Source: Bacilli bacterium
Lineage (GTDB): Bacteria > Bacillota_I > Bacilli_A > RF39 > UBA660
Reading direction: 5' to 3'
DNA length: 64,000 nucleotides
Assembly (NCBI GenBank): GCA_017525035.1
Contig: JAFXTH010000004.1
Location: forward strand, 48,385-112,384
In this document: piece by piece, positions 7,235-34,966 of the stretch
Layout: each line of letters opens with the position of its first letter
Numbering within the stretch: the stretch's first letter is position 1
Notes under the pieces: generated by a model
Told to the model about the DNA's origin: nothing
Databases searched by the model: none
The model's input: only the letters and a program-made list of their open reading frames with translations
Translations under genes and position numbers: made by a program

Positions 7235-8776
7235 CTATTCATCAAATAATTCTTTTGCTTTATCTTTTAAAGTTTTTTTTGTTTTTTCATTTTTTGGTTC
7301 TTCTTGATATTTGAACTTATCTTTATTGTTTTTATACTCTGCAGTATATTTTTTCCAATCATCTTCAGATAAGCATACAACCATATATTTTCCACCAAAT
7401 GTTTGATTTATTATTTTATTTACTACATCTATATCACTATTTACTTGAGTTGCAATACCATTTAATTTTGATATAAGTATTATATTTGTATCACTTGCTG
7501 CTACTGGCATAGTATCTGATGATAATAATCTTGCTATATTTCCATATTGTTCATCAAACGCTAGGTCTTTTATTTTGTCCCAATTACTTCTTATTTCAGA
7601 AATAATTGTTTTTTGTGGATTATATAATGTATTACCTACTCTTATTTCTATGATATTTTCATCTATTTTATTAGATTCAACTGGTTCTTTTATATTTTTC
7701 TTTAATTCTTCTTTTACTTCATTTGATTGTTTAAACTCTGTTTTGGTTTCTTTTATTGGTTCTTCATCTAGTAAACAATTTATTATAGTTACTTCAAATA
7801 TTATTTTTGGATTTTCTGACTTTTCCATTAAAGTAACCATTTGGTCTAATTCATTTATTAATTTACATAAAGATCTATCATATTTTTTTTCTAATACTAT
7901 TTCATCTCTTAAATATTCAATGATGTTATTAGCTAACTTTAATAAATCTATTCCTTCATTATAAAAATCATTAATTTTTACTATTAATTGTTCTATATTT
8001 TTATTTTGAAATAATGTTATAAAATCATTTAAATCTTGTTCTGAAACGTTTCCTGATATTTCTTTAATTGTGTTAGCAGTTATTGTTTTATCAGTATATG
8101 CCGCAGCTTTTTCTAATAAGCCGATAGCATCTCTTAGCCCGCCATTAGAATATTTTGATATTTCGCTTAATGCTGTATCATCAATATCTATATTTTCTTT
8201 TGTTGATATTTCTTTTAATTTTTGTGTCATTGATTGTGTATCAATCTTTCTAAATTCCAATGTTTGGCATCTTGATATTATTGTTAATGGTACTTTTTGT
8301 AGTTCTGTTGTTGCAAGTACAAAAATTGCATGTTCTGGTGGTTCTTCTAATGTTTTTAGTAATGCATTAAATGCACCAGTTGAAAGCATATGTACCTCAT
8401 CTACAATATATACTTTATATTTTAGTTCTGAAGGAACAAACGATATTTTATTTTTTAATTCTCTTATTTCGTCTACACCATTATTTGATGCTGCATCAAT
8501 TTCTATAATATCTACGCAGCCTGGTTCAATAGATATTTTGCAACTATCACATTTTTCACATGGAACACCATTTTTTGGTGATTCACAGTTAATTGTACGC
8601 GATAATATTTTAGCTATTGAAGTTTTACCTGTTCCTCTAGGTCCATAAAAAAGATACGCATGAGAAATATGATTATTTTCTATAGCATTTTTTAATATTT
8701 GTATTGTTACTTTTTGTCCTACTACTTCATCAAAGTTTTTAGGGCGATATTTTCGATATAATGCTTGAAATTTCAT
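7235..8776 (-). CDS. dnaX: DNA polymerase III tau/gamma subunit.
   Basis: Walker A GPRGTGKTS is present, as are clamp-loader motifs and a zinc module (CEKCDSCK). The start was chosen at ATG 8776 because AGGGGG lies 6 nt upstream; the track's TTG at 8794 is less likely. Confidence 0.9.
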   Translation of the reverse strand: MKFQALYRKYRPKNFDEVVGQKVTIQILKNAIENNHISHAYLFYGPRGTGKTSIAKILSRTINCESPKNGVPCEKCDSCKISIEPGCVDIIEIDAASNNGVDEIRELKNKISFVPSELKYKVYIVDEVHMLSTGAFNALLKTLEEPPEHAIFVLATTELQKVPLTIISRCQTLEFRKIDTQSMTQKLKEISTKENIDIDDTALSEISKYSNGGLRDAIGLLEKAAAYTDKTITANTIKEISGNVSEQDLNDFITLFQNKNIEQLIVKINDFYNEGIDLLKLANNIIEYLRDEIVLEKKYDRSLCKLINELDQMVTLMEKSENPKIIFEVTIINCLLDEEPIKETKTEFKQSNEVKEELKKNIKEPVESNKIDENIIEIRVGNTLYNPQKTIISEIRSNWDKIKDLAFDEQYGNIARLLSSDTMPVAASDTNIILISKLNGIATQVNSDIDVVNKIINQTFGGKYMVVCLSEDDWKKYTAEYKNNKDKFKYQEEPKNEKTKKTLKDKAKELFDE

Positions 8777-8805: not shown

Positions 8806-8814
8806 ATTATATCA
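8806..8814 (-). promoter_or_regulatory. Candidate extended -10 element (TGaTATAAT) for dnaX.
   Basis: The minus strand reads tgaTATAAT about 30 nt upstream of the dnaX ATG, and the region further upstream is AT-rich. There is no strong -35. Confidence 0.35.
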
Positions 8815-8856: not shown

Positions 8857-8874
8857 ATGTTTCACGTGAAACAT
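8857..8874. repeat. 18-bp perfect palindrome ATGTTTCACGTGAAACAT (motif A, copy 1).
   Basis: Perfect dyad symmetry read directly from the sequence. It lies about 45-65 bp upstream of the putative dnaX -10. Confidence 0.9.
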
Positions 8875-8896
8875 TATTTTTCAAAAACAGTTATAG

Positions 8897-8913
8897 TTAC
8901 ACGTGAAACATTA
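8897..8913. repeat. Motif A copy 2 (TTACACGTGAAACATTA; imperfect left arm).
   Basis: It shares CACGTGAAACATTA with copies 1, 3 and 4. Confidence 0.85.
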
Positions 8914-8928
8914 CTTTTTTTTAATAAA

Positions 8929-8950
8929 AAATATTTCCCGGGAAATATTT
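8929..8950. repeat. 22-bp perfect palindrome AAATATTTCCCGGGAAATATTT (motif B, copy 1).
   Basis: Perfect dyad read directly from the sequence. Confidence 0.9.
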
Positions 8951-8971
8951 TTGACTTTTTTTAGGCATTTT

Positions 8972-8993
8972 TATTTCCCGGGAAATATTTCCC
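8972..8993. repeat. Motif B copy 2, TATTTCCCGGGAAATATTTCCC. It holds two overlapping palindromes, TTTCCCGGGAAA and GGGAAATATTTCCC.
   Basis: Read directly from the sequence. Half-sites TTTCCC/GGGAAA alternate in both arrangements. Confidence 0.9.
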
Positions 8994-9005
8994 AAACTTT
9001 TTTAT

Positions 9006-9030
9006 TGTTACACGTGAAACATTATCCACA
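9006..9030. repeat. Motif A copy 3 fused to a consensus DnaA box (TGTTACACGTGAAACATTATCCACA).
   Basis: CACGTGAAACATTATCCACA is identical to 9630-9649, and TTATCCACA is the perfect DnaA-box consensus. It lies immediately downstream of the tadA stop codon. Confidence 0.9.
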
Positions 9031-9034
9031 ATTA

Positions 9035-9457
9035 TTATTTATTTCTAATATTGGTAAAGGCATCTTTAATTATTTTTTCACAGTTGTCTATAATAATTTT
9101 GTTGTTAATCTGTTTAGCTTCAATATTAGAATCGATAACATTATTTTTTGCACCATATACTACTTTGGATATTTTTGTTGCTTTTATTACTTCTTTGCAC
9201 ATTGGACAAGGTTCTAGTGTTGTATATAATACACAATCTAAAAGACGCCAATTATTCAATTTTATATTTGCCTTTTCAATTGCTATAATTTCTGCATGCT
9301 TCGTTATTACTTGTTTTGAATCTCTTAAATTATGTCCTTTTGATACTATTTCATTATTTCTAACAATTACTGCACCAACTGGTATTTCATTTTTATTAAA
9401 AGCTTTTAATGCTTCTTTATATGCAATATTCATAAAATAATTATCATCATTTATCAT
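9035..9457 (-). CDS. tadA: tRNA-specific adenosine deaminase TadA (CDA-fold deaminase).
   Basis: It has the HAEIIAI and PCPMC zinc motifs. The start was taken at ATG 9457, with GGAG 6 nt upstream. The 27-codon N-terminal extension in the track overlaps the SRP RNA gene and is probably not translated. Confidence 0.8.
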   Translation of the reverse strand: MINDDNYFMNIAYKEALKAFNKNEIPVGAVIVRNNEIVSKGHNLRDSKQVITKHAEIIAIEKANIKLNNWRLLDCVLYTTLEPCPMCKEVIKATKISKVVYGAKNNVIDSNIEAKQINNKIIIDNCEKIIKDAFTNIRNK

Positions 9458-9479
9458 ATGATCAACTCCAATAAAAAAT

Positions 9480-9553
9480 GATGCACATAAGCACAGACAT
9501 GTTAAGGCTGCTACATTCCTGTTCTGACCTGGTTCCACCGTACTTATTGCATC
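9480..9553 (-). ncRNA. ffs: Small (4.5S-type) signal recognition particle RNA.
   Basis: The minus strand contains ACCAGGUCAGAACAGGAAUGUAGCAGCC. This matches the universally conserved SRP RNA domain IV (E. coli 4.5S ACCAGGUCAGGUCCGGAAGGAAGCAGCC). The flanks CCAGGUCAG and AGCAGCC are identical and the GGAA tetraloop is present. The long helix is closed by GAUGCA/UGCAUC and AUAAG/CUUAU pairing. It is preceded by a TTGATT-N17-TAAAAT promoter and followed by AUUUUUUAUU. The exact ends are approximate. Confidence 0.75.
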
Positions 9554-9559
9554 AATGTA

Positions 9560-9588: not shown

Positions 9589-9612
9589 CAAAAAAGAGAA
9601 TTATTCATTCTC
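9588..9612 (-). terminator. Intrinsic terminator at the end of gyrA. The hairpin is GAGAAUgaauaAUUCUC and contains the gyrA UAA stop; it is followed by UUUUUUG.
   Basis: A 6-bp stem plus U-run read on the minus strand. It is AT-rich and therefore weak. Confidence 0.4.
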
Positions 9613-12204
9613 TTTTTCTTCTTCTGTTTCACGTGAAACATTATCCACAGTTTCTGTTAGTTCCACATTTTCTCCAATTTCATCAGTTTCTTCCATTTCT
9701 TCTTTCGCAATTATTGCGGTAGTAGAAACTTTTTGTTCTTCTTTTAATGAAATTAATCTTACTCCTTGAGTATTTCTACTTAATGTAGATATTTGATTAA
9801 TACTTATTCTAATAGTCATACCACTATCAGTAATAATAATTAAATCTTCATCTTCATATACTGTTCTTAATGATACTAAACATCCATTCTTATCAGTAAT
9901 ATTAAGAGTTTTAACTCCTTTGCTTCCTCTATGAGTTAATCTGTATTCATCTATTGGAGTTTTCTTACCATATCCTTTTTCAGTAACAATTAATACTTCT
10001 GCATTTGGTTCAACTACTTCTGCACCAATTACAGTCTCATCTTTTCCTAATTCTATACCTTTAACTCCAGAACTTCCTCTTCCCATTACACGAACTTCTG
10101 TTTCATTAAATCTAACTAATTTACCATTGCTTGCTCCGATGATTATTTCTTTAGTACCATCAGTCTTTCTAACTGCAATTAACTCATCATCATCCTTAAG
10201 AATTATTGCTTTTTTACCATTTGATCTAATGTTATCAAATTCTTCTCTAGCAGTTCTCTTAATTAATCCGCGTTTTGTTATGAATGTTAAGAATGATTGA
10301 TCACTTTCAGCGCTTATTGTTACAACTGAAGTAATTTTTTCTTCTTTTTCTAGTGGTAATAAGTTAACTATTGGTAATCCTTTAGCTTGTCTTGAGAATT
10401 CAGGTACTTCGTAACCTTTCATTCTATATACTTTACCTAAATTACTAAACATTAAAATATAATCATGTGTCTTCATTGATAATAGTTTTTCTGGGAAATC
10501 TTCCTCATTTGTAGACATTCCTTTAATACCAACTCCACCACGATGTTGAACTTTGAATGTATCATTAGTAATTCTCTTAATATATCCTTTATTTGTTAAT
10601 GCAATTAAGATGTTTTCTACTGGTATTAATGATTCATCTTCAATATAATCAACTGCTGTCATATCAATTGTAGTTCTTCTATCATCACTATATTTAGATT
10701 TTATTTCAAGCATTTCTTTCTTGATAATTTCTAATACTTTTTGTTCTGATGCTAGAATTGACTTCAATTCTTCTATTTCTGCAAGAAGTGCAGCAAGTTC
10801 TGCTTCAATCTTATCTCTTTCTAATCCAGTTAATCTACGTAATTTTAATTCTAGAATTGCATCTGTTTGAATTTCTGAAAGCCCAAATTTTTCCATTAAG
10901 CTTTCTTTAGCTTCAACATCAGTTTCTGCATTTCTAATAATTTTAACTACTTCATCAATATTATCAAGTGCTATCTTATAACCTTCTAAGATATGTACTC
11001 TCTTTTCATCTTTTGCAAGATCAAATCTTGTACGTCTTATAATAACTTCTTTTTGGAAGTCTATATATTTAGATATAATTGATTTTAAACTTAATGTCTT
11101 TGGAGTTAATCCATCAAGCATTAATAAGATAATTCCATAAGTAACTTGGAAATTTGTATGTTTATATAAATTATTTAATACTACTTGTGGATTAGCATCT
11201 TTCTTTAATGTAATTGTGATTTTTACTCCATCTTTTAAATCTGTATGGTAATCAGCAATTCCATCAATAGTTTTGTTATGTACAAGTTCAGCTACCTTAT
11301 TCTTTAATTCCATTGTATTAACACCATAAGGTACTTCTGTAATAACTATATTGCTATGAGAACCTTGATCTTCAATTATAGCCTTACTTCTAATAGTAAT
11401 TGTTCCTCTTCCTGTATCGTACGCTTGTTTGATACCAGAGTTACCTAAAATAAGTCCACCTGTTGGAAAATCAGGTCCTTTTATGTGTTGCATTAATCCT
11501 AAAGTGTCGATATCAGGATTATCTATGTATGCTACACATCCATCTATTACTTCACCTAAATTATGTGGTGGAATATTAGTTGCCATACCAACAGCTATTC
11601 CCATTGCACCATTTACTAATACATTTGGAAATCTTCCAGGAAGAACTCTTGGTTCTTTTCTTGTAACATCAAAGTTATCATCCATATCAACTGTATCTTT
11701 GTTGATATCTCTTAATAATTCTAGTGATATTTTAGCAAGACGTGATTCTGTATAACGCATTGCTGCTGCTCCATCACCTTCGATATTACCAAAGTTACCA
11801 TGTCCATCAATTAACATATATCTTTGGTTAAAATCTTGTGCCATTCTAACCATTGCTTCATAAATTGAAGAATCTCCATGTGGATGGTAATTACCCATAA
11901 CTTCTCCAACTGTTTTAGCACTTTTTCTGTGTGGTTTATCTGGAGTATATCCTGATTCATACATTGACCACAAAATACGTCTATGAACTGGTTTTAATCC
12001 ATCACGTAAATCAGGAAGTGCACGTGAAGCAATAACACTCATTGAATATTCCAAGAATGATGTTTTAACTTCTTCAACAATATTGTTTTCAGCTAAACTA
12101 TCTCTTTCATGAAAATATCCACCAAAATTGTTATCAACTTCTACTCTTTCAAGAGATTCATCGAATTCTTCATCTATTTGTTCTTTGTTTTCTTCGTTAT
12201 CCAT
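9601..12204 (-). CDS. gyrA: DNA gyrase subunit A.
   Basis: The 867-aa product contains [25 protein letters not shown], the active-site region (YHPHGD) and an acidic C-terminal tail. It also has an N-terminal acidic extension of about 40 aa. Confidence 0.95.
9625..9649. repeat. Motif A copy 4 plus a consensus DnaA box (TGTTTCACGTGAAACATTATCCACA), embedded in the last codons of gyrA.
   Basis: The 16-bp perfect palindrome TGTTTCACGTGAAACA is followed by TTATCCACA. On the minus strand it encodes ...TVDNVSRET... of the GyrA C-terminal tail. Confidence 0.9.
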
Positions 12205-17159: not shown

Positions 17160-18542
17160 TTAATTATGTATATTTTTTTCTAGTTTATCTATCTCATCTG
17201 CTAAGCTTTTATTATTTTTTATTTCTTGTTCTATTTTCTCACAAGAATGCATAACAGTTGAATGATCTTTTCCACCAAATTCAATTCCTATTTTAGGAAA
17301 TGATTCATCAGTATGTTTTCTACATAAATACATGGCTATTTGCCTTGGAAATGCTATATTTGCATTTCTTTTCTTTGATTTTAAGTCATCAATAGATATT
17401 TTAAAGTAATCTGCTACTATCTTTTGAATTCTACTTACATCATTTTTCTCACTATATCCTGCATTTATATATTCTTTTAAAGCTTCAATTGCAAGATTTA
17501 TATCAATTTCTGCACCCATCATTGTGGAATATGCTATTAATCTTGTTAGGCTTCCAATTAAACTTCTTATATCTGTACCTATATTAGATGCCATATATTC
17601 GATGACATTATCAGGTATTTGTTTATTTATTGATTCAGCAGCTATTAATTTCTTATATATTGCTACTTTTAAATCAAAATCAGGAGGATTAATATTTACT
17701 GATAATCCCCAACTAAATCTAGTCCTAAGTCTATCTTGTAGTATATTTAAATCATTTGGAGATCTATCAGATGAAATAATAATTTGTTTTTCATCATTAT
17801 GTAATGTATTAAATGTATGGAAGAACTCTTTTTGTGATTCTTCTTTTTTTGCTAGATATTGAATATCATCTACTATTAATACATCCACATCTCTATATTT
17901 CTTTTTAAAGAAACTAATATTATCAAAATCACTTTTATTTTCATTTTTTCTAGTAATATCAATAAATTCATTAATAAATGTTTCACTAGTTATGTATAAA
18001 ACTCTTTTATTACTATGCTTTTCTATATAATTACCTATTGCATACATCAAATGAGTCTTCCCTAGCCCACTATTACCATATATAAACAGTGGATTATACA
18101 TTTTACCTGGGTTTTCTGCTACTGCAACCGCTGCAGCATGTGCAAATTTATTACTATTTCCGACTACAAAGTTTTCAAATGTATATTTTTTATTAAGATT
18201 TGATTCAAAGTTATTAGCTTCATTTTCTTCATATAAAGTATTTGCAAGGTCTTCTGTGTCTACGTTACTTAAAATTTCTTTCTCTTCTTCCTCTATATCT
18301 TCTTGTATAAGGAATTCAAGTTCAACCGTCTCCCCTATCTCTTCAATAAAACAAGAAGTTATTAAGTCTTTATATTTAGCTCTTAAGTGATCCTTATGAA
18401 GAAGCATTGGAACTATTATTTTTGCTACACCGTTATTTAAACTATATAATTTTGTATCTTGGAACCACGTTTCGAAGCTCAGAGAGCTTAACTCATTCTT
18501 GATTTTTGTTAAGATTTTTGACCATAATTCTGTGTTATTCAT
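17160..18542 (-). CDS. dnaA: Chromosomal replication initiator DnaA.
   Basis: The 460-aa product has the AAA+ motif GNSGLGKTHL and a C-terminal DNA-binding domain. It is divergent from rpmH. Confidence 0.95.
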   Translation of the reverse strand: MNNTELWSKILTKIKNELSSLSFETWFQDTKLYSLNNGVAKIIVPMLLHKDHLRAKYKDLITSCFIEEIGETVELEFLIQEDIEEEEKEILSNVDTEDLANTLYEENEANNFESNLNKKYTFENFVVGNSNKFAHAAAVAVAENPGKMYNPLFIYGNSGLGKTHLMYAIGNYIEKHSNKRVLYITSETFINEFIDITRKNENKSDFDNISFFKKKYRDVDVLIVDDIQYLAKKEESQKEFFHTFNTLHNDEKQIIISSDRSPNDLNILQDRLRTRFSWGLSVNINPPDFDLKVAIYKKLIAAESINKQIPDNVIEYMASNIGTDIRSLIGSLTRLIAYSTMMGAEIDINLAIEALKEYINAGYSEKNDVSRIQKIVADYFKISIDDLKSKKRNANIAFPRQIAMYLCRKHTDESFPKIGIEFGGKDHSTVMHSCEKIEQEIKNNKSLADEIDKLEKNIHN

Positions 18543-18893
18543 GTCATCAAGCCCCCCGCCTAATAATTACAAGAATTATTGTAGACTAAATGTTCAAAAA
18601 AGAAAAGAGAAAATCAATAAAAAAAATTATCAACAAGAATTGCACAAAGTTTTCCATAATTAATATCTTTTATTTATATATGTTATATAAGTTTTCCACA
18701 TTTTCCACAAATTTTTAGTCACATTGTGTAGAAATTTGTTTACAGATTTATCAACAATGTTGTTAATTATGTGAATAAGTTTAAAATGTTAACATATTTA
18801 TGTTGATAACTTTTTATTTTAATGATATCATTTTATTGACATTTAGAGATTTACTTTATATAATAATGTAGATTTTAGTTTGGAGGTGGAATT
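18543..18893. promoter_or_regulatory. oriC: oriC upstream region. It holds a cluster of DnaA-box-like 9-mers and an AT-rich stretch ending in the rpmH promoter.
   Basis: TTATCAACA occurs at 18628 and 18748. TTTTCCACA occurs in tandem at 18692-18700 and 18701-18709. The reverse boxes are TGTGAATAA (18770) and TGTTGATAA (18801). The region lies between divergent dnaA and rpmH. Confidence 0.7.
18836..18864 (+). promoter_or_regulatory. rpmH promoter: TTGACA (18836-18841), 17-nt spacer, TATAAT (18859-18864).
   Basis: Consensus -35 and -10 with ideal spacing, about 30 nt upstream of the rpmH GTG. Confidence 0.7.
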
Positions 18894-19013
18894 GTGAAAA
18901 GAACTTATCAACCAAATAATAGAAAAAAAGCTAAAAAACACGGTTTCTTTGCTCGTAAAAAAACAAAAGTGTTAAACAAAAGAAGAAGTAAAGGTCGTAA
19001 AAAATTAGTTTAA
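18894..19013 (+). CDS. rpmH: 50S ribosomal protein L34.
   Basis: GTG start with GGAGGTGG as the ribosome-binding site. The product [39 protein letters not shown] is the canonical L34 (39 aa). It is missed by the ORF track because it is under 60 aa. Confidence 0.95.
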
Positions 19014-19017
19014 AATT

Positions 19018-19041
19018 CCACTGTAATCAGTGGCTTTTTTG
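19018..19041 (+). terminator. Intrinsic terminator or attenuator between rpmH and rnpA (CCACTG-taat-CAGTGG followed by TTTTTTG).
   Basis: A perfect 6-bp GC-containing stem plus T-run immediately after the rpmH stop. Confidence 0.6.
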
Positions 19042-20975: not shown

Positions 20976-20992
20976 TGCTATAATTTCACGTG
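20976..20992 (+). promoter_or_regulatory. Extended -10 (TGcTATAAT, 20976-20984) for mnmE, followed immediately by TTTCACGTG, a half-copy of motif A.
   Basis: Read directly from the sequence. It is the only other occurrence of the motif-A core outside the tadA/dnaX region. Confidence 0.45.
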
Positions 20993-27872: not shown

Positions 27873-29729
27873 ATGTATGACGTTATTGTAATTGGTGGAG
27901 GACACGCTGGATGTGAAGCATGCCTTGCAAGTGCTCGTTTAGGAAAAAAGACATTACTAGTAACAGGAAAAATTAAAAATATTGCAGATATGCCATGTAA
28001 TCCATCAATTGGTGGACCAGCAAAAGGTATTATTGTTAGAGAAATAGATGCCTTAGGTGGTGAAATGGGTAAAAATATAGATAAAAGTTTTCTTCAAATG
28101 AAGATGCTTAATACTAAAAAAGGTCCAGCTGTTAGAGCACTTCGTGCCCAAGCAGATAAAGTAACTTACCAAAAAGAGATGCAAGAGACTATACTTAATC
28201 AAAAAAATCTTGAAGTATTAGAAGCAATGGCAGAAGATTTAATTGTTGAAGATAATAAAATAAAAGGTGTTATTACAAGAGACGGCACAAAAATAGAAGG
28301 TAAAACAGTTATTATTACAACAGGAACTTACTTAAAAGGTATGGTTTTATATGGTGCAACTAAGATATCAAGTGGACCACATGATGAAGAACCATCTCTA
28401 CATTTAAGTGATGCATTAAAAAGAGTAGGATTTACAATAAAACGTTTAAAAACTGGTACACCACCAAGAATTAAGAAAGAAAGTATTGATTATTCAAAGG
28501 CTGTTATTCAACCAGGCGATCAAGAATTATATAATTTTTCTTTTTCCAATACACCAAATTATAATCCAGATGAACAAATACCATGTTATTTGATATATAC
28601 AACGCCAGAAACACATAAAATTATTAAAGAAAACTTAACAAAATCAAGTATGTATGGTGGTTATGTTGAAGGAGTAGGACCAAGATATTGTCCTTCAATT
28701 GAAGATAAAATAGTTAAATTTGCAGATAAGGAAAGACATCAAATATTCTTAGAGCCAGAAAGTATTTATTATGATGATATATATATTCAAGGTTTCTCAA
28801 CAAGCATGCCACATGATGTTCAAGAAAAAATGGTTCACAGTCTTCCGGGACTTGAGAATGCTGAAATAGTTAAATATGCTTATGCTATTGAATATGATGC
28901 AATAGATTCAATGCAATTAAAACCAAGCCTAGAAACAAAAATTGTAGAAAACTTATTTACTGCAGGACAAATAAATGGTACAAGCGGTTATGAAGAAGCT
29001 GCAGGTCAAGGATTAATTGCAGGAATAAATGCTGCAAGAAAACTTGATAATAAAGAACCATTAATATTAAAAAGAAATGAAGCATATATAGGTGTATTAA
29101 TAGATGACTTGGTAACCAAAGGTGTTATTGATCCATACAGATTATTAACATCACGCGCAGAATATAGATTATTATTAAGACATGATAATGCTGATATAAG
29201 ACTAATGGATTATGGTCATGACATTGGACTTATAGATTCTAAAGAATATAATAAATTTAAAAACAAATTAGAAGATATAGAAAAACTAAAAGAATTATTA
29301 AAATCAATTAAATTAACTCCTAAAGAAGATACTAATAAATATATTGAATCTTTAGGAAGTGCTAAATTACTTGATTCGATTACGCTATATGAATTATTAA
29401 AAAGACCAGAAATAGAATATGATTCAATCAAACAATATGTTAATGAAGAGTTTTCTAGTGATGTTATTGAACAAGTAGTAATAAATATTAAATATGATGG
29501 ATATATTGCTAAAGCTAATAAAGAAGCAGAAAAGATGCTAGAATATGAAAATATTAAATTAAGCGATACACTTGATTATTCAGTTATTCCTAATCTTGCT
29601 AAAGAAGCAGTACAAAAACTTAATGAAATAAAACCTATATCAATAGGGCAAGCATTAAGAATAAGTGGAGTTAATCCAGCAGATATCACAATGATATTAT
29701 TATATTTAAAGAGGAATAAGAATGAATAA
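27873..29729 (+). CDS. mnmG: tRNA uridine 5-carboxymethylaminomethyl modification enzyme MnmG (GidA).
   Basis: The product begins MYDVIVIGGGHAGCEA (FAD-binding), has the length of a full GidA, and is followed by rsmG. Confidence 0.95.
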   Translation: MYDVIVIGGGHAGCEACLASARLGKKTLLVTGKIKNIADMPCNPSIGGPAKGIIVREIDALGGEMGKNIDKSFLQMKMLNTKKGPAVRALRAQADKVTYQKEMQETILNQKNLEVLEAMAEDLIVEDNKIKGVITRDGTKIEGKTVIITTGTYLKGMVLYGATKISSGPHDEEPSLHLSDALKRVGFTIKRLKTGTPPRIKKESIDYSKAVIQPGDQELYNFSFSNTPNYNPDEQIPCYLIYTTPETHKIIKENLTKSSMYGGYVEGVGPRYCPSIEDKIVKFADKERHQIFLEPESIYYDDIYIQGFSTSMPHDVQEKMVHSLPGLENAEIVKYAYAIEYDAIDSMQLKPSLETKIVENLFTAGQINGTSGYEEAAGQGLIAGINAARKLDNKEPLILKRNEAYIGVLIDDLVTKGVIDPYRLLTSRAEYRLLLRHDNADIRLMDYGHDIGLIDSKEYNKFKNKLEDIEKLKELLKSIKLTPKEDTNKYIESLGSAKLLDSITLYELLKRPEIEYDSIKQYVNEEFSSDVIEQVVINIKYDGYIAKANKEAEKMLEYENIKLSDTLDYSVIPNLAKEAVQKLNEIKPISIGQALRISGVNPADITMILLYLKRNKNE

Positions 29730-30429
29730 AGAAGAATTTATTAAAGAAGTAGAAGCTTTAGGAATAGAAGTAGATGACAATAAATTAAATTTATTAGAAA
29801 TGTTTTATAATTTATTAATTGAATGGAATGAAAAAATTAATCTAACTACTATAACTAATCATGAAGAAGTATATTTAAAACATTTTTATGATAGTTTAAC
29901 TTTATACAAGGAAATTGACTTAGATAATGAAATTAAATTATGTGATGTAGGTAGTGGAGCTGGTTTTCCTGGAATAGTTATTAAGATATTTTTTCCAAAG
30001 GTTAAGATTACACTTATTGATTCACTACAAAAAAGAGTTAATTATCTTAATGAAATAATTAAAGAGTTAGGCTTAACAGATATAGAGGCTTTCCACTATA
30101 GAATGGAAGACTATTCAAAAGAACATACTGAAGAGTTTGATTATATTACAGCAAGAGCAGTAGCAGATTTGAGTATAATTTCTGAAGTATCAGTAAGAGC
30201 ACTTAAAATAAATGGTTCTTTAGTATTTATGAAAGCCAATTGTGATGAAGAACTTGAAAGATTTATTCCAAATGCTAAGAAGCTTGGATTAGTAATAGAT
30301 AATATTAATAAATTTCAATTACCTATTGAAAATAGTAATAGAACATTAATAAGTATTAAGAAAGTTTCTAAAACAAATAGTATATATCCAAGAAGAATAG
30401 ATATAATAAAAAAAGAATGCATTAAATAG
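29722..30429 (+). CDS. rsmG: 16S rRNA (guanine527-N7)-methyltransferase RsmG (GidB).
   Basis: The 235-aa product has the SAM methyltransferase motif DVGSGAGFPG and lies downstream of mnmG. Confidence 0.9.
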   Translation: MNKEEFIKEVEALGIEVDDNKLNLLEMFYNLLIEWNEKINLTTITNHEEVYLKHFYDSLTLYKEIDLDNEIKLCDVGSGAGFPGIVIKIFFPKVKITLIDSLQKRVNYLNEIIKELGLTDIEAFHYRMEDYSKEHTEEFDYITARAVADLSIISEVSVRALKINGSLVFMKANCDEELERFIPNAKKLGLVIDNINKFQLPIENSNRTLISIKKVSKTNSIYPRRIDIIKKECIK

Positions 30430-30481: not shown

Positions 30482-31807
30482 ATGAAAAATAAGAAAGAAA
30501 AAGCTTTCACGTTAATTGAATTATTGGCAGTTATTATAATCTTGGGAATACTTATGATTATAGCAATTCCAAGTGTTACTAGTTACATTTCAACATCAAG
30601 AAAAAGCGCATATATTGATACTGCTAGACAGGTTATAGCAAGTACAAGAAATTTAGTTAATAGTGGAAAATTAAGTATGTTTGATAGAAGTGCAACATAT
30701 TATATCCCAACAAGTTGTATTAAACTTGAAAATAGTAATACTCCAGTATCTCCTTATGGAGATTTTGAAAGAGCATATATAGTAGTTACTTACGAAGGGT
30801 CAAATTATAACTACTATTGGGTAAGTGTAGATGAAACAGGACAAGGAATTAGTACACTTACTAAAGTCGATGATTTGGATGAAGATTTAATTAAAACAGG
30901 ATTAAAAGGATCAGATATTGTTTTAGAAAATATTTCTGGAAAGAATCGATTAGTAGAATTCACAGCAGATTGTAAGAATACAATCAATCATGTTGATGAT
31001 GCTGGTTCAGATGCTGCAAATACAACAGATAATATTACATGGACTTATAATGATATGAGTATAAGTGTTGATGTTCATTTATCACAGTGTAACATAAGTG
31101 GCGATTATAAAATTTGTTATAATGCAACAATCGATGCTTCTAATGTTGGAGAAAATGCAACAATTAAATATTTTGAAGCTATATTTGATATTCCGCAAGG
31201 TACTGAATTAGTTCATCAAGGGTATGATCCAGATAAGTTAAAAGCAGAAATTGTTGATGGAAAATTAAAAATTATTGGAAACTCTGGACAAAATACATGG
31301 AATTTTTTAACACCAAGTAACGGATCAAGTCACTTATCAGGTGGTTTCCAAATTAAATTCCCTAAAGATGTTGATTTTGTATTACAAAATGGTAAAATTC
31401 AATATGTTGAATTAGTTAGTGGTGTTCAAGAAGGTAATTCATCAGGAGTTCAAGGCAATGCTTCTGATATGAATATTGATCTTGCAAAACTTAATATTAG
31501 ACTTGTAAGAGATAATTACTATAATAGTGGAAATGGTAAATATACTGCACAATACACTGTATATGTTAAAAACATTTCTGATTCTGATATTACTGATTGG
31601 TCATTTGTTCTTGAAGCACCAGATACTATTACTAATATATCTTCATATAACCCATTAATTTATAGTAAGAGTGGAAATGTTTATACATTTACTCCATTTG
31701 AATGGGATAATGAATATAGAACATTGTCACCAAATGAAACAGCACACTATGATAAAAAATTGGTAATAGAGACAACTGATATGAACGCTATTCCAACAAT
31801 TAGATAG
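30482..31807 (+). CDS. Large type IV pilin-like protein with a prepilin-type N-terminal domain.
   Basis: The N-terminus MKNKKEKAFTLIELLAVIIILGILMIIAIPS is a class III signal-peptide/methylation motif, with Ala instead of Gly at -1 and the conserved Glu at +5. It is followed by about 400 aa of Ser/Thr/Asn/Gly-rich, beta-rich sequence. Confidence 0.65.
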   Translation: MKNKKEKAFTLIELLAVIIILGILMIIAIPSVTSYISTSRKSAYIDTARQVIASTRNLVNSGKLSMFDRSATYYIPTSCIKLENSNTPVSPYGDFERAYIVVTYEGSNYNYYWVSVDETGQGISTLTKVDDLDEDLIKTGLKGSDIVLENISGKNRLVEFTADCKNTINHVDDAGSDAANTTDNITWTYNDMSISVDVHLSQCNISGDYKICYNATIDASNVGENATIKYFEAIFDIPQGTELVHQGYDPDKLKAEIVDGKLKIIGNSGQNTWNFLTPSNGSSHLSGGFQIKFPKDVDFVLQNGKIQYVELVSGVQEGNSSGVQGNASDMNIDLAKLNIRLVRDNYYNSGNGKYTAQYTVYVKNISDSDITDWSFVLEAPDTITNISSYNPLIYSKSGNVYTFTPFEWDNEYRTLSPNETAHYDKKLVIETTDMNAIPTIR

Positions 31808-31904: not shown

Positions 31905-33218
31905 ATGAATGACAATAATAGCGAAGTAGTATATTTATATTTGGATGATATTATTCCAAATAGATTTCAACCAAGAGAAGTATTTGATGAACAAGCATTA
32001 AAAGAATTAGCTGTATCAATCAAAGAACATGGAGTTATACAACCAATTATTGTAAGACAGGTTGAAAATAAATATGAAATTATTGCAGGAGAAAGAAGAT
32101 ATAAGGCATCAACAATGGCAGGTCTTACAAAGATACCTGCAATTGTTAAGAATTTAGATGATAAAGAAAGTTCTAAAATAGCTTTAATAGAAAATCTTCA
32201 GAGAAAAGATTTATCACCAATTGAAGAAGCAAGAACATATCAAAAGATTCTTGAAATTGAGGATAATATGACTCAAGAAGAACTTGCTGCTACTATGGGT
32301 AAAACTCAATCTTCTGTATCTAATAAATTAAGATTGTTAGCATTACCTGAAGAAGTTCAAGATGCTTTATTGAAAGATAAAATATCTGAAAGACATGCAA
32401 GAACATTATTAAACTTAGAAGATAGAAACGATCAAATAAAGATGATGGATCGAGTAATAGAAAATAAAATGACAGTAAGAGAGCTTGAAAAAGCAATTAA
32501 AGAATTTAAAGATCCTACAAGTATTGTGGAAGAAAATCAAGCTATAGATGCAGCTCCAGCGATTGTAAATGTTGATGATGCATCACTTAGTGCTAGCGAT
32601 TTAGTAAATGAAGAATCACAATCAACAGAAAGAACATTGGCGGATACATTTATGGATATTAAAAATGGAATAGACACAGAAACAAATACTGAAGCAGTTT
32701 CTGTTGAAGAACAAATAGACGCAATTGATCCAACAGAAGTAAATATAGACAAAATAAGAGAAAGTGCAGTGGACATTGGAGGAGCAAAAGTTGAAGAGGC
32801 TACAGAAGTAAGTCCTGAACCACAAATGGGATTTAAATTTGTTCCATCGTTCAGTTCAGCAGGAACAGTAACAGAACCTCCAACAACACCGGAAGTTGTG
32901 GCAGTAGAACCCGTAACAGAAGCACCTGCGCCAACTGAAGAAGTATCAGATATATCTCCTGCTTTTGAACAACCATCTCAAGACTTAGTTAATAAAGAAC
33001 CAACACTAGATGAAATAAATCAACCAGATACAATTGCAGCAGAGATTGGAAACCAACCTATAGCAATAGCAGCAGGTGGTAAAGATATATCAACAGCTAT
33101 TGAAAAAATAAAAGAAGAAGTTGATAGTTTAAAGAATGATGGCTACAACGTAATGCTTGATGAAATGGATAATAAAGACAATTATTTGATTTCAATTATT
33201 TTTAAGAAAGATGCATAG
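31905..33218 (+). CDS. noc: ParB-family nucleoid occlusion protein (Noc-like) with a long acidic/Pro/Thr-rich C-terminal extension.
   Basis: The N-terminal ParB motifs are present (IIAGERRYKAS, HTH region). It lies between rsmG and soj, the Noc position in Bacillus. Residues from about 230 to 437 are low-complexity (EPVTEAPAPTEEVSD...). Confidence 0.7.
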   Translation: MNDNNSEVVYLYLDDIIPNRFQPREVFDEQALKELAVSIKEHGVIQPIIVRQVENKYEIIAGERRYKASTMAGLTKIPAIVKNLDDKESSKIALIENLQRKDLSPIEEARTYQKILEIEDNMTQEELAATMGKTQSSVSNKLRLLALPEEVQDALLKDKISERHARTLLNLEDRNDQIKMMDRVIENKMTVRELEKAIKEFKDPTSIVEENQAIDAAPAIVNVDDASLSASDLVNEESQSTERTLADTFMDIKNGIDTETNTEAVSVEEQIDAIDPTEVNIDKIRESAVDIGGAKVEEATEVSPEPQMGFKFVPSFSSAGTVTEPPTTPEVVAVEPVTEAPAPTEEVSDISPAFEQPSQDLVNKEPTLDEINQPDTIAAEIGNQPIAIAAGGKDISTAIEKIKEEVDSLKNDGYNVMLDEMDNKDNYLISIIFKKDA

Positions 33219-33306: not shown

Positions 33307-34092
33307 ATGGGAAAAATGATTTCTTTAGTTAATCAAAAAGGTGGAGTTGGTAAAACTACTACTAGCATTAACTTATCTGCGTCTTTAGCTTATTTAGGTA
33401 AAAAAGTATTATTATTAGATTTAGATCCACAAGGAAATACCACTACTGGTATTGGTATGAATAAAGGTGATATAGATAGAACTATCTATGATGTATTAAC
33501 TGGAAAATGCAATATTGAAGATGCTATTATCCACACACAATACAAGAGATTGGATTTAATTCCAGCAACTGTTAACTTAAGTGGATTAGACACTGAATTT
33601 TTCGAAAAATCTAAAGAAGAACCTAACTTTGTTAAAGGAGCACAATTAAAAAATAAAATTAAATCAATTAGAGACAATTACGATTATATTATCGTTGATT
33701 GCCCACCATCACTAAGTATTATTACAATAAATGCTTTGACTGCATCAAACTCAGTTATAATACCAGTTCAATGTGAGTTCTTAGCACTTGAAGGTATTAT
33801 GCAATTATTAAATACAATTATGATGGCACAAAAACAATTAAATCCTAGTCTTGAAATTGAAGGAGTTTTACTAACAATGTTAGATTCAAGAGCAAATTTA
33901 GGATTTGAAGTAGTTGAAGAAATCAGAAAGTATTTCAAAGAAAGAGTTTATAATACAATTATTCCAAGACTTGTTAGACTTGCAGAGTCTCCATCTCATG
34001 GGAAGCCAATAATAGCATATGATCCAAAATGTAGAGCAACTGATGCTTATATAAATTTAGCGAAGGAAGTGATTGAGAGAAATGGACAATAA
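33307..34092 (+). CDS. soj: Chromosome partitioning ATPase ParA/Soj.
   Basis: The 261-aa product has the deviant Walker A NQKGGVGKTTT. Confidence 0.9.
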   Translation: MGKMISLVNQKGGVGKTTTSINLSASLAYLGKKVLLLDLDPQGNTTTGIGMNKGDIDRTIYDVLTGKCNIEDAIIHTQYKRLDLIPATVNLSGLDTEFFEKSKEEPNFVKGAQLKNKIKSIRDNYDYIIVDCPPSLSIITINALTASNSVIIPVQCEFLALEGIMQLLNTIMMAQKQLNPSLEIEGVLLTMLDSRANLGFEVVEEIRKYFKERVYNTIIPRLVRLAESPSHGKPIIAYDPKCRATDAYINLAKEVIERNGQ

Positions 34093-34966
34093 CACTTATA
34101 AAAGAAGAGCTTTAGGAAAAGGATTAGAGGAACTATTTAACAACGAACAAATTAATTTTGATCAAATTGAGGAGAAAATACTAGATTCAAGTACAAGAGA
34201 TGAAATAGTAGAATTGCCAGTTGATGAGTTAAGACCTAACCCATATCAACCTAGAAAAGTATTTGATGAAGATAAGTTAAATGAACTAGCTAATTCAATT
34301 AAAGAACATGGTATTTTTCAACCAATTATTGTTAAGAAAAGTTCAATAAAAGGTTATGAAATAATTGCCGGTGAAAGAAGAGTTAAAGCTTGTAAAATTG
34401 CTGGTATTGAAAAGATACCTGCTATAGTAAGAGATTTCACTGATGAACAAATGATGGAAATTGCATTGCTAGAAAACTTACAAAGAGAAAATTTAAACTC
34501 AATAGAAGAAGCAATGGCTTATAAAAACTTGCTTGATGCAATGAAAGTAACACAAGAAGAACTTGCTAAAAGGTTAGGTAAGAGTAGAAGTCATATTACT
34601 AACATGTTAGGACTTCTAAATCTTCCTGAAGAAGTAAAAGATATGATTGTAGAAGAGAAAATATCTATGTCTCATGCAAGAGTATTAAGTAAGATGGAAA
34701 ATAAAGAAGAAGTTATAGCACTTGCTAATAGAATTGTTAATGAAAGATTAAATGTTAGAGATATAGAAGATGTATCTAAAGATGAATCTATCAAGAAAAC
34801 ACATAAGATTAAAGTAAAACAAAACAATAAATATGAGTATATTCAAAATACAATGTGTGAAAAACTAGGTACAAAAGTTAAGATAACTTCTAATAGAATA
34901 AATATTACATTTACTAATGATAATGATCTAAATAGAATATTAGAAATATTAAATATTGGTGAATAA
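34082..34966 (+). CDS. spo0J: Chromosome partitioning protein ParB/Spo0J.
   Basis: It has ParB box motifs (IIAGERRVKACK, HTH LAKRLGKSRSHITN) and overlaps the soj stop. The start was chosen at MDNNTY; the track starts at 34073. Confidence 0.85.
   Translation: MDNNTYKRRALGKGLEELFNNEQINFDQIEEKILDSSTRDEIVELPVDELRPNPYQPRKVFDEDKLNELANSIKEHGIFQPIIVKKSSIKGYEIIAGERRVKACKIAGIEKIPAIVRDFTDEQMMEIALLENLQRENLNSIEEAMAYKNLLDAMKVTQEELAKRLGKSRSHITNMLGLLNLPEEVKDMIVEEKISMSHARVLSKMENKEEVIALANRIVNERLNVRDIEDVSKDESIKKTHKIKVKQNNKYEYIQNTMCEKLGTKVKITSNRINITFTNDNDLNRILEILNIGE

Follow-up and report, generated by a model that had tools for sequence, protein, structure and literature searches.

The intergenic region between tadA and dnaX in this genome holds two families of palindromic motifs, A and B, which follow one another in the order A-A-B-B-A across 175 bp, and the question raised by the locus is what these motifs serve. 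A sequence-only reading took them for operator sites of one or two dimeric regulators of transcription positioned at the dnaX promoter. Comparison with published binding sites, with the genes encoded in the window (the whole 64,000-nucleotide stretch of DNA that was analysed) and with related loci leads to a different answer, which is that the array very probably constitutes an origin-proximal, centromere-like loading region with two kinds of sites for two paralogous proteins. The sites of the array (8857-9030) and the flanking copies are as follows.

8858-8873, no strand assigned: parS site A1, TGTTTCACGTGAAACA, with 0 mismatches to the consensus
8895-8910, no strand assigned: parS-like site A2, AGTTACACGTGAAACA, with 2 mismatches and one perfect half-site
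8932-8947, no strand assigned: NBS site B1, a perfect TATTTCCCGGGAAATA within a perfect 26-bp palindrome (8927-8952)
8972-8993, no strand assigned: NBS site B2, a "1.5-site" made up of a perfect TATTTCCCGGGAAATA 16-mer (8972-8987) and an overlapping extra half-site
9006-9021, no strand assigned: parS-like site A3, TGTTACACGTGAAACA, with 1 mismatch
9022-9030, plus strand: perfect DnaA box, TTATCCACA, directly adjoining A3
9625-9640, no strand assigned: fourth parS, perfect, within the 3' end of gyrA, where it encodes N-V-S-R-E-T
9641-9649: second perfect DnaA box, adjoining the gyrA-internal parS with the same spacing as at A3

The sites are real and lie where the sequence-only reading had placed them, in the order that it gave, and the core CACGTGAAACATTA is common to A1, A2 and A3 with no differences. 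Its description of the motifs as perfect palindromes holds for A1, B1 and B2 and not for A2 and A3, each of which is perfect in the half-site CACGTGAAACA. Likewise, its count of three A copies is correct for 8857-9030 and overlooks the fourth copy in gyrA. B2 includes a second, overlapping dyad, GGGAAATATTTCCC, at 8980-8993. The consensus DnaA box that had been described as fused to the third A copy is present, and is one of four perfect DnaA boxes in all in the 64 kb. A half-copy that had been noted at the mnmE promoter exists as a lone half-site at 20984-20992, the full 16-mer at that place having 6 mismatches. The claim that such a cluster is not due to chance is borne out by motif counts far above the shuffled expectation: the window contains 5 parS-like matches with at most 3 mismatches where 0.27 are expected, 2 copies of TTTCCCGGGAAA where 0.02 are expected, and 7 copies of TTTCACGTG where 0.16 are expected. 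A chance origin of the array is thus excluded.

The consensus parS is TGTTTCAC-GTGAAACA and the consensus NBS is TATTTCCC-GGGAAATA, the two differing at two positions in each half-site (Jalal et al. 2020, PMC7383237). At the level of sequence, motif A is the consensus parS and motif B is the consensus NBS, with every letter matching. Scored against the 16-bp palindrome TGTTNCACGTGAAACA, the four parS copies in the window have 0, 2, 1 and 0 mismatches, and the 16-bp palindrome of NBS, TATTTCCCGGGAAATA, is present in two perfect copies. That the dyads are predicted protein-binding sites, as had been proposed, agrees with their identity to the published consensus sequences. The regulon motifs that had been tried earlier (TnrA, PurR, LexA, CodY, Rex, CcpA and Fur) indeed do not fit, presumably because the sites serve ParB and Noc clamps and not transcription factors.

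If the array consists of parS and NBS, proteins able to read each class of site should be encoded nearby. The window contains just two genes for ParB-family proteins, together with a gene for a partition ATPase.

31905-33218, plus strand: Noc-like ParB paralogue of 437 aa, predicted NBS reader
33307-34092, plus strand: ParA/Soj-type partition ATPase
34073-34966, plus strand: ParB/Spo0J of 297 aa, predicted parS reader

Discrimination between parS and NBS depends on positions 173, 179, 184 and 201 in the Caulobacter numbering; ParB proteins have R173 and G201, while Noc proteins have Q173 and R201 together with a permissive lysine at 179, at 184 or at both, one lysine at either position being sufficient (PMC7383237). 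Alignment to solved structures gives R173/M179/N184/S201 for the 297-aa protein, which is the parS type, with no arginine at 201, and Q173/K179/A184/R201 for the 437-aa protein, which is the NBS type with alanine in place of lysine at 184. The best solved relative of the former is B. subtilis Spo0J (212 bits), and the best solved relatives of the latter are Noc structures (212 bits). ParB has an N-terminal LGKGL motif as well as the GERR and ENLQR CTP-binding motifs, and the Noc-like protein has the ParB-family fold with the GERR and ENLQR motifs. Q173, K179 and R201 are kept in 118 of the 120 closest Noc-like homologues (400-520 aa). Since the specificity residues match and the best solved relatives are reciprocal, the window encodes one predicted reader for each class of site, in keeping with the earlier suggestion that two motif families imply two dimeric DNA-binding proteins.

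The 437-aa protein lies where a Noc would be expected, beside rsmG and upstream of parA-parB, and is nevertheless to be regarded as Noc-like and not as a canonical Noc, judged by its curated score and by its lack of a membrane helix. Its score against the NCBIfam Noc model (TIGR04285) is 281 bits, below the cut-off of 315, and is unchanged (281.4) when the linker is removed. Compared with Noc of Geobacillus and B. subtilis, the protein is shorter by about 24 residues at its N-terminus, and lacks both the 10-aa N-terminal amphipathic membrane-targeting helix and helix alpha2. An in-frame upstream extension of the gene is impossible, as a stop codon precedes the open reading frame with no other start codon in between, and the N-terminus is short in 60 of 60 Noc-like homologues among the matches listed. 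Nucleoid occlusion needs the N-terminal membrane-targeting helix of Noc (PMC8429893). Because this helix is absent, one cannot assume membrane tethering or nucleoid occlusion as in B. subtilis, and the activity of the Noc-like protein may differ from that of Noc given its score and its missing N-terminus. A linker of about 190 aa separates the DNA-binding domain from a Noc-like C-terminal domain, which matches positions 212-255 of the Noc profile weakly. AlphaFold predicts confident folds at residues 85-205 and 393-437, with pLDDT <50 at residues 207-273 and 292-392, and the low confidence of the predicted linker is consistent with disorder. Two conserved islands stand within the linker, NPTxVDINKIRENAVDIGG (window aa 275-292) and FKFVPSF (aa 310-316), and one may speculate that they are candidate interaction motifs.

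The position of the array on the chromosome can be judged from the genes that surround it, of which those on the near side of the putative origin are listed here.

7235-8776, minus strand: dnaX (DNA polymerase III gamma/tau; NF004046, 485 bits)
9035-9457, minus strand: tadA (tRNA adenosine deaminase)
9470-9559, minus strand: small SRP RNA gene in the gyrA-tadA interval (RF00169, 48.8 bits; gathering score 40)
9601-12204, minus strand: gyrA (identified by Pfam DNA_topoisoIV and DNA_gyraseA_C on orthologues and by tblastn)
17160-19030: dnaA (17160-18542, minus strand) and the intergenic region upstream of it, which holds clustered DnaA-box-like sites

Gene order on the minus strand is dnaA, dnaN, recF, gyrB, gyrA, SRP RNA, tadA, array, dnaX, ybaB and recR, and on the other side of the origin lie rsmG (29722-30429), a pilin-like open reading frame, the noc-like gene, parA and parB. 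The sign of the GC skew changes at about 18-19 kb, adjoining dnaA, and the region upstream of dnaA is likely, from its sequence features, to be the replication origin (oriC). About 9.7 kb separate the array from the skew switch and dnaA, which makes the array origin-proximal. A scan of the whole window against Rfam found the SRP RNA alone and no structured RNA in the array. The array was also considered as a secondary replication origin or cluster of DnaA boxes, and this was rejected: the skew switch is at about 18.5-19 kb, and DnaA boxes occur only singly, beside two of the parS sites.

Conservation of the array was assessed in two samples that differ in how they were drawn. The unbiased one consists of nine relatives selected solely as dnaX homologues (60-89% identity). 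In every one of the nine, gyrA-tadA-dnaX synteny is preserved and the tadA-dnaX gap holds a mixed parS/NBS array. The rest of the locus (about 13.5 kb) has no further sites in these nine except for one gyrA-internal parS, in L001, where this feature of the window is conserved. The "1.5-site" arrangement, GGGAAA-TATTTCCCGGGAAATA, recurs in L003 and L008. A regular tandem repeat was looked for in the window's own array and not found; the relatives differ in this respect, with regular tandem arrays of alternating sites in L005, L007, L008 (126-nt unit x5) and L009.

The second sample came from a scan of one genome per species with the pattern TTTCCCGGGAAA-N14-44-CACGTGAAAC, which returned at least 120 stretches; the pattern preselects adjacency of parS and NBS, so that the unbiased evidence is that of the nine dnaX-selected loci and of a metagenome sample of NBS described below. 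Among the matches listed, about 117 of 120 stretches are low-GC contigs (22-31% GC, one 37%), labelled as Bacilli, Erysipelotrichaceae, "Mycoplasma sp.", Tenericutes, Clostridium sp. CAG:710 and Clostridium sp. CAG:1000. The array is beside the 3' end of gyrA, tadA or dnaX in most of the low-GC matches listed. It is always just downstream of gyrA, in either the gyrA-tadA gap or the tadA-dnaX gap, the former being its place in most of the distant relatives. Identity of dnaX to that of the window falls to 35-45% among carriers of the array, and the feature is therefore old. The mixed arrangement of predicted parS and NBS sites is conserved in more than 100 species of uncultured gut Bacilli. Tandem units in relatives are 83-180 bp long and arranged head-to-tail with 92-95% unit identity, which implies recent duplication or concerted evolution. 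The largest arrays among the matches listed have 12 parS and 13 NBS in strict alternation (L084 and L127), and that of L127 is built from an 83-nt unit x13.2 at 95% identity.

Across all loci the sites fall into two discrete classes, with 480 pure parS-type 16-mers, 396 pure NBS-type 16-mers and 0 chimeras, which is the outcome predicted for two specific readers. Among relatives the parS consensus extends to A-TGTTTCACGTGAAACA-T, and NBS sites are flanked by runs of A and T. A search for 8-mer enrichment, directed at a third conserved motif inside the arrays, found nothing enriched more than about 4.5-fold, the top word being the parS flank. Some tandem units contain a purine-rich AGTGGAAAAAGA which appears to be lineage-specific. 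Centre-to-centre distances of neighbouring parS and NBS, taken once for each locus, have maxima at 25-27, 35-37 and 47-49 bp, corresponding to 2.5, 3.5 and 4.5 helical turns (Rayleigh p ~1e-9 at a period of 10.5-11 bp, a value that ignores phylogenetic relatedness). Half-integer helical spacing of this kind would fit simultaneous occupancy of neighbouring sites on opposite faces of the helix.

The 64-kb window contains no NBS outside the array. Outside arrays, 957 kb of sequence from relatives holds 33 perfect NBS, many of them at a fixed place within dnaX where they encode (I/N)ISREI in an otherwise variable stretch, and some further downstream of dnaX, so that the array is not strictly the only place for NBS in the clade. 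Metagenome contigs were scanned for perfect NBS as a proxy for a whole-genome census of these sites, and this gave 120 stretches, 56 at GC <33% and 64 of higher GC. The gyrA/tadA/dnaX/recR locus accounts for 40 of the 56 low-GC stretches and for 0 of the 64 higher-GC ones, which points to a strongly focal distribution of NBS in the clade.

It is in the light of these comparisons that the proposal of operators at dnaX has to be weighed. In its strong form the array controls the dnaX promoter, and in a weaker form bound ParB or Noc represses or insulates dnaX and tadA. The proposal draws on the location of the array between tadA and the extended -10 of dnaX (TGATATAAT, read from the sequence at 8806-8814), with the centre of A1, the site nearest to the promoter, about 55 nt upstream of this element, and on the close relatives L001, L003 and L006, where a parS precedes a conserved dnaX promoter by 50-70 nt. 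The core promoter itself is not overlapped by any site, however, and the position of the array relative to that promoter is not fixed across relatives: two genes separate the array from dnaX in L002 and L005, and in most of the distant relatives the array occupies the gyrA-tadA gap. The motif search in relatives that had been suggested earlier thus recovered arrays in every one of the nine loci, and it did not recover a constant relation to the promoter. In addition, copies are found within coding sequence (gyrA here, dnaX in relatives), the motifs are those of consensus parS and NBS, and the window has genes for the corresponding ParB and Noc paralogues. With the sites identified as parS and NBS and the array tied to the locus in relatives, operators for transcription regulators are improbable. 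A side effect of ParB/Noc occupancy on the transcription of dnaX or tadA is possible.

It is less probable again that the palindromes are not protein sites and work by forming hairpins in RNA or DNA, for instance as intrinsic terminators that act in both directions between tadA and dnaX. B1 on the gene strand gives an 11-bp stem with UUUUUUAUU after it, a single terminator-like site was predicted at 8980-8993, and runs of A and T flank NBS in relatives, but the stems are weak (-6 to -7.5 kcal/mol), barely surpass shuffled sequences (z of -0.7 to -2.5) and are nearly all A-U. Hairpins should show compensatory changes, and instead exact 16-mers of two classes only are found in more than 100 species. 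Up to 25 tandem copies would make no sense as terminators, and copies are also present inside open reading frames. B1 with its T-run may still serve as a weak terminator of tadA. That the array is a REP/MITE-like or otherwise selfish repeat, or a functionless relic of tandem duplication, is hardly credible: the 92-95% identity between units in relatives would suit it, but nothing similar occurs elsewhere in the 64-kb window, the relatives compared have a single locus per genome, conserved in position down to 35-45% dnaX identity, unit lengths vary by lineage while the two 16-mers are invariant, and the spacing is helically phased.

The most likely role of the array sites is thus to load two paralogous DNA clamps that depend on CTP. 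If this ParB/Spo0J behaves like the ParB proteins already characterised, its dimers would nucleate on the three A sites and on the gyrA-internal parS, close into CTP-bound clamps and slide onto the flanking DNA. Together with ParA and presumably SMC, ParB would then organise and segregate the origin region. The Noc-like paralogue would nucleate on the two B sites in the same manner. Interleaving of the two types of site would force both nucleoprotein complexes onto the same few kilobases beside oriC, and, with half-integer spacing, neighbouring dimers would sit on opposite sides of the DNA, which may permit full occupancy. Homology is the ground on which binding, CTP-dependent spreading and a function in partition are ascribed to the ParB/Noc-like pair.

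A more far-reaching proposal, tentative and as a whole rather doubtful, is that the Noc paralogue is a second centromere protein which co-assembles with ParB on one interleaved array. As part of the same joint proposal, the Noc paralogue of this clade may not be a dispersed membrane-tethering factor for nucleoid occlusion, NBS may first have arisen through two-base changes in duplicated parS within a tandem centromere, and the dispersal of NBS and the membrane helix of Noc may have come only later, in Bacillales.

Compared with the ParABS systems of Bacillus subtilis and Caulobacter, the locus has an identical 16-bp parS consensus, an origin-proximal location, parA-parB near rsmG, and a ParB with GERR and ENLQR CTP-binding motifs and specificity residues of the parS type. 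Intragenic copies are a further likeness, B. subtilis having a parS inside spo0J. The locus differs in that parS are packed at intervals of 34-40 bp and interleaved with the sites of a second paralogue, and in that parS of relatives form long regular tandem arrays whereas those of the model organisms are single sites across the origin region. The Noc-NBS system of B. subtilis and Staphylococcus aureus has the same NBS consensus, and the predicted reader shares with it the gene position immediately upstream of parA-parB, Q173/K179/R201, a Noc-like C-terminal domain, and Noc structures as best solved relatives. NBS are scattered over the origin-proximal chromosome in B. subtilis and S. aureus, with none near the terminus, and seem here to be concentrated in one array mixed with parS, and the Noc-like protein departs from Noc in having no membrane helix or alpha2 (about 24 residues), a low-confidence linker of about 190 aa and a score below the cut-off. 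The sopC centromere of the F plasmid consists of 12 repeats of 43 bp, each with a 16-bp inverted repeat for SopB. Iteron centromeres of this type resemble the head-to-tail repeats of 83-180 bp in relatives, which likewise hold palindromic sites. Unlike sopC, each unit has sites for two different paralogous proteins, the element lies on the chromosome and shows vertical conservation, and the window's own array has no regular tandem repeat.

The literature searched contained no description of natural mixed parS/NBS arrays, of Noc in Tenericutes or RF39-like lineages, or of the association of a mixed array with a helix-less, long-linker Noc paralogue. Each part is already known (parS, NBS, and the families of ParB and Noc), and what is new is their conserved, interleaved and often tandemly amplified arrangement. 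The interest of the locus lies in this composite arrangement and its breadth across species, and not in a new regulon. ParB and Noc are a textbook case of a duplicated DNA-binding protein with changed specificity. Accounts of that change are not known to deal with the way in which the binding sites followed it, and they usually treat the two systems as standing apart in space. The locus offers a concrete picture of how NBS could arise from parS, points to a Noc variant without a membrane helix, and provides a ready substrate for asking if a pair of CTP clamps on one DNA cooperate, obstruct each other or have no mutual effect.

The array is also a strong marker of the origin region in metagenome-assembled genomes of a poorly known gut lineage. 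Several arrays are located at contig ends, and breaks of the assemblies at this locus are explained by the arrays themselves.

Neighbouring parS and NBS sites (the predicted ParB site and the predicted site of the Noc-like ParB paralogue, respectively) are spaced periodically in the arrays of loci L001-L129, with centre distances that peak at 25-27, 35-37 and 47-49 bp. These peaks correspond to 2.5, 3.5 and 4.5 helical turns, and such half-turn spacing would make adjacent dimers face opposite sides of the DNA. Spacings within the window array are 37, 37, 40 and 34 bp. Some NBS sites are compound, as the window has an additional NBS half-site at 8980-8993 that overlaps a full NBS (GGGAAA-TATTTCCCGGGAAATA), forming a '1.5-site' that is also present in the relatives L003 and L008. 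Two NBS overlap each other in L006, and L002 carries several isolated half-sites (ATATTTCCCAAAA).

Only four perfect DnaA boxes (TTATCCACA) occur in the 64-kb window, and two of these abut parS:

9022-9030, perfect DnaA box abutting parS
9641-9649, perfect DnaA box abutting parS

The spacing between parS and the DnaA box is identical at both sites (TGTGGATAA-TGTTTCACGTG on the gene strand). Among the relatives L001-L129, a perfect DnaA box lies within 14 nt of 22 of the 536 parS sites versus about 1.5 expected by our estimate from the background rate, although the real enrichment is smaller than these counts imply because tandem copies are not independent. The tandem units of L007, L008, L009 and L127 share a purine-rich segment beside parS, AGTGGAAAAAGA(A/T)AAAA, which loosely resembles a degenerate DnaA box (TTTTCCAC) and which was not singled out by an 8-mer enrichment search over all loci. 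Many arrays are located at the extreme end of a contig (L010, L015, L027, L031, L032, L084 and others), and some are divided over two contigs of one metagenome-assembled genome, as for L015 and L031. Tandem arrays probably break short-read assemblies, and array sizes are therefore likely underestimated.

In L002 (2363-5649) and L005 (2186-5710), an insertion of two genes separates the parS/NBS array from dnaX. The pair encodes one protein of 727 or 805 aa and one of 360 aa, and Pfam gave no match for either gene in L002 or L005. The window also has a gene whose end coincides with the tadA ribosome-binding site:

9470-9559, small SRP RNA gene between gyrA and tadA

The B. subtilis counterpart, scr, is located between tadA and dnaX, the gap that holds the parS/NBS array in the window.

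NBS are also found outside the arrays. More distant relatives, whose dnaX is 35-42% identical, possess a perfect NBS at a constant position about 1050 nt inside the dnaX reading frame:

L016 3555, L022 2700, L040 1620, L060 1960, L067 4045, L110 1849 and others, dnaX-internal perfect NBS

Since the encoded (I/N)ISREI sits within an otherwise unconserved protein stretch, the sequence points to selection acting on the DNA site rather than on the protein. Additional perfect NBS are found repeatedly some 3-5 kb downstream in distant relatives, for example at L044 6147 and L068 1402, where they code for YFPGN. In some higher-GC metagenome contigs (GC 39-62%), perfect NBS and ParB/Noc-family genes share one short stretch, which suggests that NBS occur close to the noc-parAB genes themselves in other lineages:

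L136, L146, L159, L175, L196, L232, NBS on one stretch with ParB/Noc-family genes

B. subtilis is not known to carry a gene between rsmG and noc, whereas the window has an additional gene at this position:

30482-31807, 441-aa ORF between rsmG and the noc-like gene

Similarity of its product to pilin/pseudopilin models is confined to the first ~30-50 residues, where it is weak and falls below the cut-off. In the Noc-like protein (31905-33218), the linker predicted at low confidence has two conserved islands: NPTxVDINKIRENAVDIGG (aa 275-292), which includes a short predicted helix (281-287), and FKFVPSF (aa 310-316). These islands are possible interaction or membrane motifs.
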